Positions 21,264-61,054 of a stretch of DNA of 64,000 bases are shown one piece after another. Positions within the stretch are counted from its first letter, which is position 1. The number at the start of each line of letters is the position of its first letter. The stretch comes from Caldithrix sp. (GTDB taxonomy: Bacteria > Zhuqueibacterota > Zhuqueibacteria > Oceanimicrobiales > Oceanimicrobiaceae), in the NCBI GenBank assembly GCA_004356825.1, contig SMXC01000249.1:21885-85884 (forward strand). The letters are read 5' to 3'. Made by a program: the position numbers and the translations under genes. The notes beneath the pieces are model-generated. The model had not been told where the DNA came from. It saw only the letters and a list, made by a program, of their open reading frames with translations, and searched no databases.

Positions 21264-22778
21264 TTACTTTTGCGGGATTTCAACGAAAACATGAACCTCT
21301 TCTTTAAATCTTATCACTGTAAAAATTGAAACCGACCCACCCTCAAGATTGGAAACAAGCTTGTATAAATGATTTTCGTTTCTGATAAATTTATTATCAA
21401 TTTCTGTAATAATGTCGTCCTGTCTTATTCCAGCCTCACTGGCTGGACTCCATCTTTGAACATCAGTAACCAGGGCACCGGAAGTGCCAGAGTAATCCAG
21501 TTCCTTAGCCATTTTACGGTTCAAATCTTTAACCGTAAGGCCTAGGTTTTCGAAATCTTTAGGAAAACTCTTTGTTGCAAAGTTAGTTTCACCCGTTTCT
21601 TTTATCCCCAAGCGGACCCTCAGCTCAACTTTACGGCCATTCCTCAACAACTCAAGAAGCACGATATCACCAGGATTTCTTTTGGCAATTATCGCCTGAA
21701 CCTGGTTGCTTTTGTTTACTTCCCGGCCTTCAATCTTAAGGATGACGTCCTTCGTCCGCACCCCAGCCCTTTCAGCCGGCTCTCCCTTTATGACCTGACT
21801 GACAAAAACACCCATTGGTCTGTCCAACTTCAAAGCACGTGCCTTCTTTTCGTCGATATCCTGCATACCAATTCCCAAATATCCCCGTTCGACTCTCCCT
21901 TTTTGGATCAAGTCGGTCATAATTTTGCTGGCAAGATTGATGGGGATAGCAAAACCAAATCCGACGCTGTAGCCAGTTTCAGTTGCAATTGCAGTATTGA
22001 TGCCAATCACCTCACCCCTGAGGTTAACCAAAGCGCCGCCACTATTCCCGGGGTTAATTGCGGCGTCCGTTTGCAAAAAACTTTCAACACCGTAAGTGTC
22101 GCTAATGATGTCTATACTTCGTTCTTTGGCGCTAATAATCCCGGCTGTGACCGTTGACTGAAGCTCTAAGGGATTTCCAATCGCCAGAACCCATTCCCCG
22201 ACTCTGGTCTTGTCAGAGTCACCTAATTTAACCACGGGCAAATCAGCCGCTTCAATTTTGACTACGGCTACCTCAGTTAGGGGATCCAGGCCGACAATCC
22301 GAGCATCAAATGCGCGCTTATCGGAAAGAATAACTCGGATTCGTTCTGATTTATCCACCACATGAACGTTGGTTAAAATATAGCCGTCTTTCGAAACAAT
22401 AATTCCGGAACCCGCGCCTCGCTGGCGGAATTCTTTAGGGACCTTAAAGCGGAAGAAACGCCGTAAATCATCGCGGTCGTGGAATCGCTCGACGTCGGCC
22501 CTTTTTATCAAACGTGTGCTTTGAATGGTAACCACGGAAGGAACGACAAGTTCAGCTATGTAAATGAATGCTTCACTTGTGCTCTGCAGATCGAGTAATT
22601 TTTGGGGAACTCGTTTTTGCGAACCCAATTGAAAATTTGGAACATTGGTTACCGGAACTACGGGGGGTGAACTTAATGAAGTTTGGGTAAGATCAAACCC
22701 CGATGAAATAATTAAACCCAACAGTAATCCAAGAAACAAAAGTAAAACGCCTAAACGAAGTGAGTGTTGTTTCGACAT
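21264..22778 (-). CDS. htrA: HtrA/DegP-family serine endoprotease with two PDZ domains (copy 2).
   Basis: 504 aa. TNVHVV, GNSGGALVN and two PDZ domains. Paralog of the 18322..19842 gene. Confidence 0.9.
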   Translation of the reverse strand: MSKQHSLRLGVLLLFLGLLLGLIISSGFDLTQTSLSSPPVVPVTNVPNFQLGSQKRVPQKLLDLQSTSEAFIYIAELVVPSVVTIQSTRLIKRADVERFHDRDDLRRFFRFKVPKEFRQRGAGSGIIVSKDGYILTNVHVVDKSERIRVILSDKRAFDARIVGLDPLTEVAVVKIEAADLPVVKLGDSDKTRVGEWVLAIGNPLELQSTVTAGIISAKERSIDIISDTYGVESFLQTDAAINPGNSGGALVNLRGEVIGINTAIATETGYSVGFGFAIPINLASKIMTDLIQKGRVERGYLGIGMQDIDEKKARALKLDRPMGVFVSQVIKGEPAERAGVRTKDVILKIEGREVNKSNQVQAIIAKRNPGDIVLLELLRNGRKVELRVRLGIKETGETNFATKSFPKDFENLGLTVKDLNRKMAKELDYSGTSGALVTDVQRWSPASEAGIRQDDIITEIDNKFIRNENHLYKLVSNLEGGSVSIFTVIRFKEEVHVFVEIPQK

Positions 22779-54657: not shown

Positions 54658-56055
54658 TTAAGCAATTGCAAAATCTTCATCCGAAAATTTAATTGAAGGA
54701 TATTCCCGCAATTTCGTCTTGAAGACTTCAATGATTTCCTGCAAACGGTCTTTAGTTTTAGCTTCAAATCGCAGGACCAAAACCGGCTGCGTGTTGGACG
54801 CACGAACCAGCCCCCAGCCGTCGCCAAACAATACCCGCGCGCCGTCGATATCAATGGCGTCATAACTTTTCTTAAAGTAATCCGCAATATCCGCCACAAC
54901 GTTAAATTTGTCTTCATCGGTCGCATCAATTCGAATTTCGGGAGTCGACTCAAAATGTGGAATTTCATCGACGATCTCGGAGAGTTTTTGGTCGGTGTTT
55001 GAGAGAATTTGCATGAGCCGGCCCGAAACATAAATCGCGTCGTCGAAGCCAAAATAATCATCCGCATAAAAAATATGCCCGGACATCTCACCTGCCAAGG
55101 GCGAGTTAATTTCTTTCATTTTTGCTTTTAAAAGCGAGTGACCGGTTTTCCACATCAGGGGTTTACCGCCGTGTTTCCGAATTTCTTCAGGAAGCGCCTG
55201 GGAACATTTTACATCAAAAACAATTTCTGAACCTGGATTTCGATCTAAAACCTCGCGGCTTAAAATCGCCAGCAGCGTATCCGCAAAAATCATCCGGCCT
55301 TTTTCATCGATAACCCCAACGCGATCGCTATCGCCGTCGTAACCGATCCCCAGGTCTGCCCCGGTTTCGAGAACCTTTTCCTGCAAATCAACTACGTATT
55401 TCAGGACAGTCGGATCGGGCAGGTGGTTGGGAAAGCGGCCGTCAGGTTCACAGTAAATGCATTCCACATCGCATCCCATGTCTTCCCAGAGCTTAGGCGC
55501 AACAAGACCAGCGGTGCCATTGCCGGCATCGATGACAATCTTGAGTTTCTTATTAAATTTCAGCTTGGACTTTAAGGTCGTTACGTAATCATCCATGACG
55601 TTTTTCTCGACGATCTCTCCGGCGCCCGTGGCAAAATCGTCGCTCTCGATAATTTTGCGAATTTCCTGAATTTGCTCCCCATAAACCGGCACTACGCCTT
55701 TCTTGGAGATTTTTAAACCGTTGTAGTCAATCGGGTTGTGACTGCCGGTAATCATGACACCGCCGTCGGCGTTTAAATGAAGAATAGCAAAATATTGAAT
55801 GGGAGTAAGTGTTACACCAACATCTATGACATTGACTCCTGTTGATTGCAGTCCTTTAATAAGCGCATCCCGAAGGCGCGGCGAAGAAAGCCGAACATCC
55901 CGGCCAATAACTAAAGTCTTTGAACCCTGCCGACCCAAAAATGTGCCGATTCCTTTACCCAGCAGAACGACATTTTCATCAACCAGATCTTCATCTGCGA
56001 TTCCCCGGATGTCATATTCACGAAAAATGGTTGGTTTGAGCATTAAGTCCTCCAT
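54658..56055 (-). CDS. Phosphoglucomutase/phosphomannomutase (alpha-D-phosphohexomutase family).
   Basis: 465 aa. Active-site Ser loop TGSHNP. Metal-binding DGDSDR. Sugar-binding GEMSGH. Four-domain layout. Confidence 0.85.
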   Translation of the reverse strand: MEDLMLKPTIFREYDIRGIADEDLVDENVVLLGKGIGTFLGRQGSKTLVIGRDVRLSSPRLRDALIKGLQSTGVNVIDVGVTLTPIQYFAILHLNADGGVMITGSHNPIDYNGLKISKKGVVPVYGEQIQEIRKIIESDDFATGAGEIVEKNVMDDYVTTLKSKLKFNKKLKIVIDAGNGTAGLVAPKLWEDMGCDVECIYCEPDGRFPNHLPDPTVLKYVVDLQEKVLETGADLGIGYDGDSDRVGVIDEKGRMIFADTLLAILSREVLDRNPGSEIVFDVKCSQALPEEIRKHGGKPLMWKTGHSLLKAKMKEINSPLAGEMSGHIFYADDYFGFDDAIYVSGRLMQILSNTDQKLSEIVDEIPHFESTPEIRIDATDEDKFNVVADIADYFKKSYDAIDIDGARVLFGDGWGLVRASNTQPVLVLRFEAKTKDRLQEIIEVFKTKLREYPSIKFSDEDFAIA

Positions 56056-56223
56056 GTACTTAAAAAGTATTCAGCTTTAATAGGCTGAGCAAGTTATTCG
56101 TTTATTCGTTATTCGCCACACAAAGCTCATGCTGAGCGGAAATCCAACTCAAGATGACTCCCAGGTTAATTTTGGCAGCTGAATCAATCAACGCTCGACA
56201 AGAACTCATCACAACAGGATTAT

Positions 56224-57114
56224 TTATTCATACTCACAAAATAAGATTCGATCTATTTCGTTCAGATCTTGAAAAATATTTATATTATTGAAGCTGGTTT
56301 TTACGAAAATTTCTTTTACTGCCACCGCCTGGCCTAAACCAAGCTCAAGCATTAAGAATCCGGATGTTTTAATTAGCTCGGGTGAAAGCTCAGCAATTTT
56401 GCGATAAAAGCTTAAGCCATCCCGGTTGTCGCTGAGGGCAACTGCGGGCTCATACTTTTTGATTTCTTCGGGCAAGTCTTCAAAATCTGTTGGGGAAACA
56501 TACGGTGGATTTGAAACCAGTACGTCAAATTTGTCAGGAAAATAGTTTGCAATTTTTGATGAAGTGCAATCTTGATTTATGAACTGTATCCGGTCATCAA
56601 CGCCATTTAAGCCGGCATTTTTTTCAGCAACTTTAAGAGCGTCCCTTGATATATCTAAAGAAGTTATTCGGGCATTCTCCAAATATTTTGCTAAACTTAC
56701 GGAAATACACCCCGAACCGGTGCCAAATTCCAGAACCTCAATCTGATCTTTTGAGGCGAATTTCTCTTTGCACATTTGAATGGTTTTTTCCACCAGAATT
56801 TCCGTCTCCGGACGCGGAATCAAGACGTTCTCATCCACAACAAAAGGTAATGACATGAACTCAGCTTCGCCAAGAATATATTGCAAAGGTTCCCGGTCTG
56901 CTCGTCTTTTTAAGCAACGCTTGAATGCTGCCGCTTCGGTTTGAGTCAAATAACGATCCTGGTTCAAGTAGAGATCAACGCGATTTATCCCCAAAGTATG
57001 GCGCAATAACTGCTCTGCATTCAACCGCGCGTTTTCAATTCCTTTTTCGGACAACATTTTTGAGCTGTCGTTTAAAAGATCAACAATATTCCTTGTCATT
57101 GAAGATAGAATCAT
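56224..57114 (-). CDS. prmC: Release-factor glutamine N5-methyltransferase PrmC (HemK).
   Basis: 296 aa. SAM-binding VLEFGTGSG. Catalytic NPPY (VLVSNPPYV). Belongs to the prfA operon. Confidence 0.85.
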   Translation of the reverse strand: MILSSMTRNIVDLLNDSSKMLSEKGIENARLNAEQLLRHTLGINRVDLYLNQDRYLTQTEAAAFKRCLKRRADREPLQYILGEAEFMSLPFVVDENVLIPRPETEILVEKTIQMCKEKFASKDQIEVLEFGTGSGCISVSLAKYLENARITSLDISRDALKVAEKNAGLNGVDDRIQFINQDCTSSKIANYFPDKFDVLVSNPPYVSPTDFEDLPEEIKKYEPAVALSDNRDGLSFYRKIAELSPELIKTSGFLMLELGLGQAVAVKEIFVKTSFNNINIFQDLNEIDRILFCEYE

Positions 57115-57130
57115 TAAGGCTATTCTATAT

Positions 57131-57979
57131 CTATTGTTCCCAGCTCGATCTGGTCGCCGCCTTCCTCAGTATTTCACGATTTGTATTTGTCGGAGGCGGC
57201 TCGGATTCGCCGAAGACGGCCCTGATCCAATGACCATCCGTTGGGTTTGGGAGCAGGATGAACTTTCGCCCGAAGAGATCTTTGTCTTGCTCCATAAGCT
57301 TGGTTCGTTCGTCAATGTCTGTGACGTAGTAAACCCGCTTAAAATCGTTGAGGTTATCGCCCATAAATAGCACGATTTCATAGTCATTACCTATCTCATC
57401 CTGCCGTTTTTGCTTGTTGGATGTATCGGTTAGAACCGTTAGATGATTTTCATCGGCGTAGGGGAATCCATTGATCTTCAGGTGATCCATCGCGTACTCG
57501 AAAGTTTTCGCGCCCTGGTTCCGGCTTGTGACATAGAAGACCTCAACATCATTGTCCTTACAGAAGGCAAGAAAGTCCACGGACCCGGGCGTAGGAACCA
57601 CCTTGTTTTCCGGGATCCACCGATCCCAAATAGAATCGTCAAAAAAAGCCTGGTTATTATTAATCAAATATCCCCAGTAATTTACGGTATTGAGGATGGT
57701 GTCGTCCATATCCATTACCACTGCCAATGTTTTATCCCCGGGTGTTCGAGTAGACAACGCACGCTCCACTTGCATTCGTGCAATGTTGTAGGCCTGATAA
57801 TACAGTGCCCTGTACTCTGCTGCTGTTTGTTTCCATGCCACAGCCATCATAAGTGAATTTTGGGAACTGGGATTGGAAGATTTCGCCGACACAATGCTAA
57901 CTACGCCACATAGGAAAACAGTGCTGCAAAATTTTACGAACTGCGCCCTGATGGAACAGGGTTGGCATTTGTGATGCAA
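57131..57979 (-). CDS. HAD-superfamily class B acid phosphatase / 5'-nucleotidase, lipoprotein e(P4) family.
   Basis: 282 aa. Signal peptide. HAD motif I AVVMDMDDTILNT (DxDxT). Motif II (VTSR), motif III K, motif IV GDNLNDF. Inserted between prfA and prmC. Confidence 0.7.
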   Translation of the reverse strand: MHHKCQPCSIRAQFVKFCSTVFLCGVVSIVSAKSSNPSSQNSLMMAVAWKQTAAEYRALYYQAYNIARMQVERALSTRTPGDKTLAVVMDMDDTILNTVNYWGYLINNNQAFFDDSIWDRWIPENKVVPTPGSVDFLAFCKDNDVEVFYVTSRNQGAKTFEYAMDHLKINGFPYADENHLTVLTDTSNKQKRQDEIGNDYEIVLFMGDNLNDFKRVYYVTDIDERTKLMEQDKDLFGRKFILLPNPTDGHWIRAVFGESEPPPTNTNREILRKAATRSSWEQ

Positions 57980-58111
57980 TCGATGCTCCTTGCTTTGTGT
58001 TCGAAAATTACTTATATCAACATTATTGCGTGCTTTTTTATTGCTTCAACCGAACGATCCTAGTTCAACCAAAATCAAGGCGATTCATTTCCAAAGTATT
58101 CCCAATAATTG

Positions 58112-58215
58112 CACGGCATTCAACCGCGCCTTTTCAATTCCTTTTTCGGACAAGAATTTGGGACTGTCGTTTCAAAAGTCAACAATATTGCTTGCATTTG
58201 AGAACAGAGTCATTG
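58112..58215. repeat. Degenerate duplicate of the 5' end of prmC (about 105 bp, roughly 80-85% identical to 57009..57114); pseudogene fragment left at the original prfA-prmC junction.
   Basis: Direct repeat: gcattcaaccgcgcSttttcaattcctttttcggacaa...ctgtcgttt(c/a)aaag(a/t)caacaatatt... occurs at 57017-57095 and 58112-58190. On the minus strand, copy B reads ATG ACT CTG TTC TCA AAT GCA AGC AAT ATT GTT GAC TTT TGA (stop after 13 codons), versus the intact MILSSMTRNIVDLLND. Confidence 0.55.
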
Positions 58216-58229
58216 GATTAACTAAAATA

Positions 58230-59297
58230 CTAACCAGCCTTTTTCAACAACTCAGCCTGGTCTGCGAGACGGAGTTTGTCGATGACTTCCTGAATATCAC
58301 CATCAAGCACTTCGTCGAGGCGGTAGAGAGTTAAGCCAATCCGGTGGTCGGTAAGCCTGCTTTGGGGAAAGTTGTATGTTCTGACTTTGGCGCTGCGATC
58401 GCCGGAACTGATCATGGAACGACGACTCTCGGTTAACTTTTCCTGCTCCTCACGCTGCTTCTTTTCCAGCAACCTCGCCTTGAGAACTTTCAGGGCTTTG
58501 GCGCGGTTTTTATGCTGGGATTTTTCATCCTGGCAGGTCACCACCATGCCGGTGGGAATGTGGGTAATTCGAACGGCGGAATCGGTGGTATTCACGCTTT
58601 GGCCGCCGGGTCCCGAGGAACGGTAAACATCGATTTTCAATTCGTTGGGCTCGATTGAAATTTCAACTTCTTCAGCTTCGGGCAGCACCACAACAGATGC
58701 CGCCGAAGTATGGATTCTGCCGTTGGTCTCGGTTTTCGGCACCCTTTGCACACGATGTACGCCGCTTTCATACTTCATGACGCCGTAAACATTTTCCCCG
58801 TTCATCATAAAAATAATTTCCTTAAACCCTCCCACGCCCTGCGGATTTGAACTTAGCACTTCAATTTTCCAGCCTATCCTTTCAGCAAACCGGCTGTACA
58901 TTCGATAGAGATCACCGGCAAAAAGCCCGGCTTCATCGCCACCGGTTCCTGCTCTAACCTCAACGATTACATTTTTTTTATCTTGGGGGTCCTTAGGCAG
59001 CAACAAAACCTTGAGTTCCTCTTCGAGATCAATCTTCTTTGGTGTCAGTTCTTCAAGCTCGAGTTCGGCGAGTTCGCGCAGCTCTTCATCGCTGTCATTT
59101 TTGAGAACAGATTCGTCCTCCTGCAAGGTGGTTAAAACTTTTTTATACTCGTGATATTTTTCTATGGTTTTGTCCAGCCCACTCCTCTCTTTTGCGATTT
59201 CTTTGTATTTGGCAGGGTCTTGAGTGACATTTGGATCCATTAAAAGCTCACAAAGCTCTTGATAACGCTTATCAATTTTTTCCAATTGTTCTAACAT
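58230..59297 (-). CDS. prfA: Peptide chain release factor 1.
   Basis: GGQ motif (SGPGGQSVNTTDSAVRITHIPTG). PxT-type codon-recognition region. RF1 length (356 aa) if started at MLEQLEKIDKRYQEL (ATG at 59297). The longest ORF (to 59405) adds a non-conserved 36 aa. Confidence 0.9.
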   Translation of the reverse strand: MLEQLEKIDKRYQELCELLMDPNVTQDPAKYKEIAKERSGLDKTIEKYHEYKKVLTTLQEDESVLKNDSDEELRELAELELEELTPKKIDLEEELKVLLLPKDPQDKKNVIVEVRAGTGGDEAGLFAGDLYRMYSRFAERIGWKIEVLSSNPQGVGGFKEIIFMMNGENVYGVMKYESGVHRVQRVPKTETNGRIHTSAASVVVLPEAEEVEISIEPNELKIDVYRSSGPGGQSVNTTDSAVRITHIPTGMVVTCQDEKSQHKNRAKALKVLKARLLEKKQREEQEKLTESRRSMISSGDRSAKVRTYNFPQSRLTDHRIGLTLYRLDEVLDGDIQEVIDKLRLADQAELLKKAG

Positions 59298-59516: not shown

Positions 59517-60491
59517 TTACTGAACGTTCTCCAACTGCGCCTTTTCTTCACCCTCGACAACCACGTTCGGGTGTTCCGAGATGCTTAAACCCAGAGCGCA
59601 TTTCAGGGCCACAATGGCAACTTCCAACTGGCTTTCATCAGGTTCTTTTGTGGTCAGTCTTTGCAGCCACATTCCCGGTAAAATGAACGGCCGCCAAAAA
59701 CTTTTCTTTGCTCCGACATCCGACAGTCGAATAAGTTCATATGAAATGCCGCCAATGAGCGGAAGAAAAGCAAGACGCAGCAATCTATCTCCCAGGTCTA
59801 CCGGTTTACCTAAAAACATATACACAAAAATGCTGACCACCATCACGATGAATAAGAAACTGGTGCCGCAGCGGGGGTGAAAGCGCGAAAGCGGTTTTGC
59901 GGCGGCTGGTGTAAGGTCCTTTTTGTTTTCAAACGCAAAAATGCTCTTATGCTCGGCCCCGTGATATTCAAAAATACGGCGAATGTCTTTCATCAATGTT
60001 ATCGCGCCGAGATAGAGAAGAAAAATCGACAGGCGTAGAAAACCGTCAACCAGGTTAAACATGAATCCGCTTTCTGCGCCTAGCAATTCGGTTAAAATCA
60101 GGGGCACATAAAAGAAAATAAACAATCCGATTCCAAAGGAGAACAGGACAGTAAGCCCCAGCCACACACTGGCCAGCCAACCTCTCTTTTCCGGGATGAC
60201 GTCTTTGTTGTTATTTTTTCTTTCATTTTTCTTCTCATCTTCAACAGCAACATCGCCTGAAAAAGTCAAAGCTCGAACTCCCAAAACCAGAGACTCTATC
60301 AGGACAACCGAGCCTCTCAGGATCGGAAAGGATAAAACTTTAAAGCGTTTGATAAAAGAAACAAACGATTTTTTCCGCACTAAAATACTGCCGTCCTGCC
60401 GGCGAACTGCCACAGAAACAATTTGTGCCGATCTCATCATCACGCCTTCAATTACCGCTTGTCCGCCAATTTGTAGTGCTTGCTCGTTCAT
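59517..60491 (-). CDS. DUF1385 (YqhQ-like) family membrane protein.
   Basis: 324 aa. Family-defining N-terminus IGGQAVIEGVMMRS. Several TM helices. Conserved HGAEHK and HPRCGTSF blocks. Confidence 0.7.
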   Translation of the reverse strand: MNEQALQIGGQAVIEGVMMRSAQIVSVAVRRQDGSILVRKKSFVSFIKRFKVLSFPILRGSVVLIESLVLGVRALTFSGDVAVEDEKKNERKNNNKDVIPEKRGWLASVWLGLTVLFSFGIGLFIFFYVPLILTELLGAESGFMFNLVDGFLRLSIFLLYLGAITLMKDIRRIFEYHGAEHKSIFAFENKKDLTPAAAKPLSRFHPRCGTSFLFIVMVVSIFVYMFLGKPVDLGDRLLRLAFLPLIGGISYELIRLSDVGAKKSFWRPFILPGMWLQRLTTKEPDESQLEVAIVALKCALGLSISEHPNVVVEGEEKAQLENVQ

Positions 60492-60616: not shown

Positions 60617-61054
60617 TTATGAATTGGTCACAGCTTCTTTATCTTCCACCTTTTCAGTTTTACTTTCGGTTCCAACGGATTCGGCTTGTTCTTCAGCTTT
60701 TGCCTCAACTTTCGTTTCAGCTTTCGCGGCTACATTTTTTGCTTCAGCAGCTTGCCGCTCCGCTGCAGCTTTTTCCTCAACCGCCTTTTGTTCTGCGGCT
60801 TTTGCCTCAACTGCCTTTACTTCTTCTGCTTTTTCCTGGGCAGCTTTTTTATCAGCCAAACCGTATTTTTTCATAAACTTCTCAACACGGCCAGCCGAAT
60901 CAACCAAATGTTGTTTACCGGTAAAAAACGGGTGGCAGGCCGAACAGATTTCAACATTCATATCACCGACGGTCGATCGAACTTGAAATGAATGCCCGCA
61001 TGCACAGGTTACAGTACCAACTTTGTATTCCGGATGAATATCAGGTTTCACCAT
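60617..61054 (-). CDS. rpmE: 50S ribosomal protein L31 (Zn-ribbon type) with a 79 aa Ala/Lys/Glu-rich C-terminal extension.
   Basis: Residues 1 to about 66: [66 protein letters not shown], which is canonical L31 with CxC...CxxC. Then [40 protein letters not shown]... to residue 145. Confidence 0.85.

Follow-up and report, generated by a model that had tools for sequence, protein, structure and literature searches.

How a conserved housekeeping operon comes to hold an additional gene while its own genes stay complete is the question raised by the prfA-prmC locus of Caldithrix sp. (GTDB lineage Bacteria; Zhuqueibacterota; Zhuqueibacteria; Oceanimicrobiales; Oceanimicrobiaceae). The locus lies within a stretch of 64,000 nucleotides (nts), called the window in the following, which corresponds to positions 21,885 to 85,884 of contig SMXC01000249.1 (assembly GCA_004356825.1, forward strand); all coordinates count from its first letter. 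Here a phosphatase gene separates prfA, which encodes peptide chain release factor 1, from prmC, which encodes the release factor glutamine methyltransferase, and a degenerate copy of the prmC 5' end, the stub, lies just after prfA. The most probable origin of this arrangement is a duplicative insertion of a phosphatase gene native to the clade, in a common ancestor of the window and of a close relative, after which the locus was reshuffled by recombination between lineages.

Two unequal copies of the prmC 5' end

The genes concerned are all minus-strand genes. At the head of the remodelled operon stands prfA (58230..59297, stop codon at 58230-58232), whose product of 355 amino acids (aa) contains the Pfam domains PCRF and RF-1 and scores 521.6 bits with NCBIfam TIGR00019 (cutoff 423); the same start is used by the gene calls in public collections. 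It is followed by the phosphatase gene (57131..57979, 282 aa) and by intact prmC (56224..57114, 296 aa). The latter is identified by TIGR03534 (267 bits, cutoff 199.1), by the PrmC_N (PF17827, E 6e-23) and MTS domains and by an NPPY motif in its translation (VSNPPYV), and, among named relatives of its product, the closest carries the annotation candidate division KSB1.

When 56700-57200 was aligned locally with 57800-58300, a single match was obtained, 56952-57115 against 58053-58214, in which 132 of 164 positions are identical (80.5%) with two 1-nt gaps. Its score of 96 compares with 11.3 +/- 1.5, and a maximum of 18, in 300 shuffles. BLASTN against the whole window likewise found the pair significant (E = 1.7e-37) and detected no third copy, and a repeat search placed the two copies 1099-1101 nts apart. 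The original prediction of a prmC 5' duplication of about 105 bp is therefore right as to its existence but too short: the repeat measures ~162-164 nts, corresponding to prmC codons 1 to ~55 (56952-57114 in the intact gene), and may extend ~12 nts further with one indel. The shorter stretch first noticed is its best-preserved part (57004-57115 against 58103-58214, 82% identity). As direct repeats of 162-164 nts, the two copies bracket an insert of 937 nts.

The upstream copy (58053..58213) is degenerate, with an identity and a premature TGA that agree with what had been predicted. Its ATG begins 16 nts past the prfA stop, and on the minus strand it reads ATG ACT CTG TTC TCA AAT GCA AGC AAT ATT GVT and so on to TTT TGA, the TGA being codon 14 (58174-58172). 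Beyond it, two 1-nt deletions disrupt the frame twice. In the relative L028, which is 94% identical to the window and has the same arrangement, the stub shares the TGA and most of the substitutions. One of the window's deletions is missing from it and further indels are its own, so that the open frame is 30 codons long as compared to 13 in the window.

An assembly artefact, in the form of a collapsed or chimeric repeat, was ruled out, since six independent assemblies from different samples and pipelines (L020, L021, L022, L023, L032 and L112) are 99.7-100% identical to the window at this locus and the two copies are only 80% identical to each other. Both copies are found in each of the six assemblies that spans both. 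Two of them, the Logan assemblies L021 and L022, end inside prfA (at window positions 58536 and 58313), 100-320 nts upstream of the stub; these breaks could reflect co-occurring strain variants at the junction in those samples.

The insertion is derived

In phosphatase-free lineages, prfA is immediately followed by prmC without exception (five out of five). The gap is 16 nts in L024 and L025 (PrmC identities of 95% and 86%), 15 nts in L026/L027 (77%) and 3 nts in L002 (45%), and the two genes overlap by one base in L001 (55%). Synteny is otherwise identical wherever the contigs are long enough: rho, rpmE, a DUF1385 gene, prfA, prmC and a phosphoglucomutase-family gene. This bears out the proposal that prfA and prmC were originally contiguous, and the insertion is the derived state.

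The spacers tell which of the two prmC copies marks the old junction. The 16 nts between prfA and the stub (58214..58229, minus strand; TATTTTAGTTAATCCA) are the prfA-prmC spacer of L024 and L025, with which they align, and are 100% identical in L028. The 16 nts ahead of the intact gene (57115..57130, minus strand), which run from the phosphatase stop to the prmC ATG and form the right junction of the insertion, are different and new. Since the stub keeps the ancestral spacer and intact prmC has a new one, the stub occupies the old junction and the intact gene has been pushed 1.1 kb downstream, much as had been predicted. The new phosphatase-prmC spacer is common to the window, L028 and L029/L114 with small indels, which points to a single origin of this joint.

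To polarise the differences between stub and intact copy, L024, L025 and L026 were used. Of the 33 differences, 18 fall on the stub branch (14 of them shared with the L028 stub), 10 on the functional copy, and 5 are ambiguous. A neighbour-joining tree of prmC nts 1-164 unites intact prmC from the window, L028, L114 and L113 in one clade and the stubs of the window and L028 in a second (100% bootstrap each); the stub clade is sister to the intact clade, apart from L024 and L025 (85% bootstrap). This topology favours the view that the duplicated prmC was the lineage's own and that the duplication postdates the separation from the L024 group.

The inserted phosphatase gene

The product of the inserted gene, suggested earlier to be a phosphatase of the HAD/e(P4) type, indeed belongs to the e(P4)-family 5'-nucleotidases/class C acid phosphatases. 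It exceeds the cutoff of the e(P4) equivalog model NCBIfam TIGR01533 (229.2 bits against 216.05, residues 24-267 of 282), matches Pfam Acid_phosphat_B (PF03767, E 1.7e-33) and aligns with the structure of Haemophilus influenzae e(P4), 3et4 (E 3e-36). In this alignment, the motifs with the four catalytic aspartates of the DDDD superfamily (DxDxT and GDxxxD) are kept as VVMDMDDT and MGDNLNDF. By inspection of the translation, the N-terminus has a cysteine-containing hydrophobic stretch (FVKFCSTVFLCGVVSIVSA) and does not contain the canonical L-[AS]-[GA]-C lipobox. In L028 the gene (L028:1808-2671) carries a 1-nt deletion, at the equivalent of window position 57336, that shifts the frame after about residue 214, and differs from the window at 21 sites in codon positions 1 and 2 as compared to 19 in the third. 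This copy may be decaying, or the deletion may be an error in a low-coverage contig.

Where the gene came from is best judged from the relative with 77% PrmC identity. Its metagenome-assembled genome (MAG; L027, GCA_947259745.1) contains a phosphatase gene that is 84% identical at the nucleotide level, on another contig (L030) and among unrelated neighbours, the two contigs having been placed in one genome by MAG binning. Nucleotide identities between this relative and the window are 84% for the phosphatase, 85% for prfA and 80.5% for prmC, and the corresponding synonymous divergences (dS) are 0.60, 0.76 and 0.77, so that the phosphatase gene has diverged to a degree comparable with its two neighbours. 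The GC content at third codon positions is 0.55 in the phosphatase gene, matching the 0.52 of prfA. On the strength of the L030 copy and of this composition, the phosphatase gene appears to be the clade's own, either moved or copied into the operon, and is probably not foreign. Horizontal acquisition from outside had been considered as the nearest named homologues, proteins of Rhodoferax, Variovorax and Bacillaceae, are only 60-67% identical, but it was rejected in view of the L030 copy (83-84%) and the host-like codon composition.

Homology with L030 begins ~28-33 nts before the TTG start, thereby taking in an AAGGAG at 57986-57991, 6 nts before the start codon, and ends ~13 nts past the stop. 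The first part of the 57115-57130 spacer also aligns with sequence downstream of the L030 phosphatase, while the upstream ~45 nts of the 5' non-coding part of the insert (57980..58052, minus strand) match nothing found. As intergenic DNA no longer aligns at the divergence of L030, where the moved segment begins and ends can be told only from the repeats. The Big_5 protein gene adjoining the L030 phosphatase has no match in the window, and a vacated native site was not found. A metagenome scan with the phosphatase recovered one further locus with this arrangement, from the same species; the other 79 loci (<=68% identity) have unrelated contexts.

Mobile elements and expression

No transposase, integrase or terminal inverted repeats were found in or beside the 1.1-kb unit, whose neighbours are prfA and prmC, and the phosphatase gene is the only open reading frame (ORF) of any length within the insert. 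A transposon or insertion sequence with target-site duplication was excluded, the duplication being 164 nts rather than 2-14 bp and both a transposase and inverted repeats at the insert ends being absent. A site-specific integrative element was excluded as no integrase lies in or beside the unit. The direct repeats of a homologous segment flanking the insert are, on the other hand, a hallmark of Campbell-type (single-crossover) integration.

Since the three genes run in the same direction with no terminator-like site found between prfA, the phosphatase gene and prmC, the phosphatase is probably co-transcribed with the prfA-prmC operon. A weak sigma-70-like -35/-10 match just after the stub (58049-58022) is a match to consensus only.

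A mosaic locus with four haplotypes

Recombination has reached into the intact gene as well. Between the window and the KSB1 MAG L024 (L024:5426-6022) there is one difference in 56093-56688, and above 56689 the two diverge by ~10% overall (~8% in prfA and 11% in the next 3.9 kb upstream). This places a sharp recombination breakpoint near 56689, inside prmC, and delimits a tract of near-identity to L024 (56093..56700, minus strand) that comprises the prmC 3' end and the downstream spacer.

A second arrangement is seen in L114 and its shorter copies L029 and L113, which have the same phosphatase-prmC joint as the window. In L114/L029, an insertion of ~475 nts with a small membrane-protein ORF directly follows the prfA stop. 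This ORF (L114:2446-2918, L029:1-440, L115:467-952) encodes a hydrophobic protein of 108-136 aa, unrelated to the phosphatase, with no Pfam or NCBIfam match and only two homologues in a search of 5.8 billion proteins. The stub of L114/L029 measures just 56 nts, and its ATG has become ATA. At the left joint of L114, stub nt 56 is fused ~25 nts upstream of the phosphatase start with a T/TC overlap. The 56-nt stub carries the L024/L025-type bases 23A and 30C, where the window stub and all intact copies carry derived bases, and shows none of the changes of the window stub. In the same L114, intact prmC belongs to the window-type clade over nts 1-164 (100% bootstrap), prfA and the DUF1385 gene are of the L024 type, and prmC beyond about nt 190 is of neither. 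L115, finally, has prfA, the membrane ORF and intact prmC without a phosphatase.

The junction therefore exists in four forms: prfA-prmC (H0), prfA-stub(162 nt)-phosphatase-prmC (H1), prfA-membrane ORF-stub(56 nt)-phosphatase-prmC (H2) and prfA-membrane ORF-prmC (H3). The simplest account of H2 is that an H3-type chromosome took up, from an H1-type donor, a block comprising the phosphatase gene and the prmC 5' end, which was joined on the right via prmC homology and on the left by an illegitimate joint at nt 56 of the recipient prmC. The L114/L029 locus has the corresponding pattern of homology-facilitated illegitimate recombination, donor-type from joint to crossover and recipient-type outside, and its arrangement was very likely produced by such a block import. 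Replacement of the upstream flank plus a deletion would lead to the same result in more steps. A haplotype boundary near prmC nt ~185, a little beyond the end of the repeat, had been considered as evidence for a discrete mobile unit and was dropped, given that 181G and 184G also occur in the phosphatase-free L115.

This mosaicism bears on the use of the locus for dating. The footprint had been described as clean and datable, a description that is not supported: the functional copy accounts for about a third of the divergence, the haplotype has moved between lineages, and breakpoints fall inside prmC. Stub-intact divergence is not a simple clock, and an attempt to use it as such was abandoned because of mosaicism.

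Origin of the arrangement

How the arrangement of the window began can be reconstructed as follows. In an ancestor of the window and L028 lineages of KSB1, a segment of ~0.94 kb that held the native e(P4) phosphatase gene of the clade together with its ribosome-binding site would have been inserted at the prfA-prmC junction, with no element-encoded recombinase involved. The primary event would have been one illegitimate insertion, achieved through template switching or break repair, that duplicated the first ~165-175 nts of prmC and left a complete prmC downstream of the insert. The upstream prmC copy, on the old 16-nt spacer, would thereby have become a dead stub, which has since decayed through the codon-14 stop, frameshifts and lineage-specific indels. 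Homologous recombination among KSB1 lineages that are ~5-15% divergent later shuffled the haplotype. We regard this sequence of events, downstream consequences included, as probable on the comparisons described above; the comparisons show the arrangement itself, its ancestral state, the origin of the gene within the clade, the decay of the stub and the mosaicism, while the single-step duplicative mechanism and co-transcription are what we infer. The sister relationship of the stub to the intact prmC of the host is the reason for preferring the duplicative option.

Several observations weigh against this reconstruction. The primary mechanism is unreadable from the sequence, the flanks of the L030 gene being too divergent beyond ~30 nts upstream and ~13 nts downstream. 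The sister relationship of stub and intact copy depends on ~3 sites (85% bootstrap) and could be mimicked by gene conversion between the copies. Moreover, carriers of the insertion do not form a monophyletic group on the prfA and DUF1385 trees, where L114, which has it, groups with 100% support with L024, which does not. Finally, the 250 non-coding nts around the stub (57980-58229) differ between the window and L028 by 6 substitutions (2.4%) and 4 indels, whereas at third codon positions the phosphatase gene differs by 6.7%, prmC by 10% and prfA by 15%, all above the stub region. Such a low divergence is unexpected for neutral DNA; the likeliest reason is a recent block exchange, or else some constraint.

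Could the window have received a pre-formed block of phosphatase gene and prmC 5' end from a related donor instead, the stub being the recipient's truncated prmC and no intragenomic duplication having taken place? The block might have entered by homology-facilitated illegitimate recombination, with homology on the right and an illegitimate joint on the left in the recipient prmC, or as a circularised fragment by a single crossover, and both routes, including circularisation plus single crossover, have been described experimentally (PMC3240628). The 20% difference between the copies would then partly be donor-recipient divergence, not time since insertion. Inter-lineage recombination is demonstrated directly at this locus, so that the process certainly operates in the clade, and it very likely gave rise to the L114/L029 arrangement, in which an L024/L025-type stub and a window-type prmC 5' end stand beside L024-like prfA and DUF1385 genes, the left joint differs from that of the window while the right joint is the same, and L115 provides the matching chromosome without a phosphatase. 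For the window itself, however, the stub is sister to the intact copies, not to another lineage, and the import calls for an unobserved primary donor with the phosphatase gene directly before prmC, none being present among the 80 metagenome loci or the other phosphatase contexts examined. We consider this a possible but clearly less probable origin of the window's arrangement than duplicative insertion. Less probable again is the idea that the 1.1-kb unit, that is the phosphatase gene plus the first ~165 nts of prmC, might act as a recombinase-free mobile cassette with the prmC 5' end as its homology anchor. If so, it would have spread among related KSB1 lineages, leaving a fresh stub of the recipient prmC at each arrival, and the prfA-prmC junction would be a recurrent landing pad at which the unrelated small membrane-protein gene also landed.

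Two further readings seem very improbable. One takes the insertion to be ancestral to the whole group, L024, L025 and others having lost it through direct-repeat recombination that restored prfA-prmC. The 164-nt direct repeats would permit such a precise excision, lateral transfer would no longer be required to account for the patchy occurrence on the prfA tree, and L115 could in principle derive in this way from an L114-like ancestor. Yet several derived bases in nts 1-164, for example 54A, 99A, 105G and 125G, are common to intact prmC of the window, L028 and L114, and not one of the 14 older changes on the stub branch is seen in L024 or L025. A neutral stub should outpace the functional copy over the same period. 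The more distant L026, L001 and L002 are also without the insertion, and the MAG of the relative with 77% PrmC identity has its phosphatase on the separate contig L030. According to the other, the stub has been kept for a function, as a translated leader peptide, as a site for translational coupling downstream of prfA, or by supplying the phosphatase gene with a promoter or leader. The stub and its spacers (the same 250 nts) do diverge less between window and L028 than the third codon positions of their neighbours, both have kept the 16-nt spacer and the ATG, and the weak -35/-10 match lies just after the stub. The short frame is nevertheless not conserved, the 13 codons of the window being replaced by 30 different ones in L028, and in L114/L029 the ATG is replaced by ATA while two thirds of the stub have been deleted together with the promoter-like site. 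In addition, the stub region folds no more stably than shuffles (z = 0.27) and has no Rfam match, and promoter-like matches are no commoner in it than in shuffled sequence.

Comparison with known systems

Insertions at the end of a gene that bring along a replacement for it are familiar from the SXT/R391 integrative elements in the 5' end of prfC. These elements span tens of kilobases, have an integrase gene of their own and depend on a short specific attachment site. The KSB1 locus resembles them in that the gene 5' end is interrupted, an intact gene is restored beside the insert and a partial duplicate remains at the other border. It differs from them in the size of the unit (1.1 kb), its content of one metabolic gene, the lack of an integrase and the 164-nt repeat.

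Other parallels are found among recombinase-independent processes of natural gene transfer. Homology-facilitated illegitimate recombination, as defined in PMC3240628 (citing de Vries & Wackernagel 2002 and Prudhomme et al. 2002), likewise has one homologous joint and another with little or no homology, and involves no element-encoded recombinase; the L114/L029 variant is a good fit to this one-sided pattern. The direct duplication of a homologous segment on both sides of the insert is in turn what single-crossover integration of circularised fragments produces. Both processes were, however, characterised in laboratory transformation or conjugation with foreign DNA, whereas the gene here is native to the clade and the process is read from sequence. 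For the window's own event, an intragenomic duplicative insertion would fit slightly better than either route.

A further likeness is to Rhs and type VI secretion effector loci, for which PMC5361080, together with the work on Rhs C-terminal displacement cited there, describes displacement arrays of orphan gene fragments. At these loci, incoming DNA with a copy of a conserved gene end recombines at that end, the resident copy is displaced as a non-functional remnant, and arrays can build up. At the KSB1 junction, the number of inserted genes similarly varies (0, 1 or 2), as does the length of the stubs. At the Rhs and type VI loci, selection driven by conflict displaces the variable 3' toxin ends and the immunity genes, in contrast to the 5' end of a housekeeping methyltransferase gene and a phosphatase cargo unlinked to the function of the operon.

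The locus is thus a good natural instance of something already known, the remodelling of an operon through an insertion that is duplicative or anchored by homology, and not a new kind of system; it is an ordinary footprint of genome rearrangement and has no bearing on any major open question. Its interest is that, in an uncultured phylum, a conserved housekeeping operon has been opened without loss of function, the partial duplication of the start of the downstream gene preserving that gene while the operon gains a new one. The four co-existing haplotypes and the clear breakpoints further indicate that such insertions can pass between ~10%-divergent lineages, and there is a practical warning against taking the divergence between a pseudo-fragment and its intact counterpart as a simple clock.

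Neighbouring genes and start sites

With its upstream spacer changed, the true start of intact prmC is uncertain (57099-57114). The gene has an extra in-frame ATG at codon 6 (57099), where AATGAC replaces the ancestral AAATAC. Public gene calls for this species start at Met6 (291 aa), those for relatives at the first ATG (295-298 aa).

The remodelled operon is flanked on the minus strand by the phosphoglucomutase-family gene (54658-56055) downstream and by the DUF1385 gene (59517-60491) and rpmE (60617-61054), encoding ribosomal protein L31, upstream. The rpmE product of 145 aa ends in ~75 residues in which Lys, Ala and Glu are abundant. This C-terminal tail is absent from the L001 and L002 versions (85-96 aa), and the proteins of L024 and L026 are also long (144 and 157 aa).

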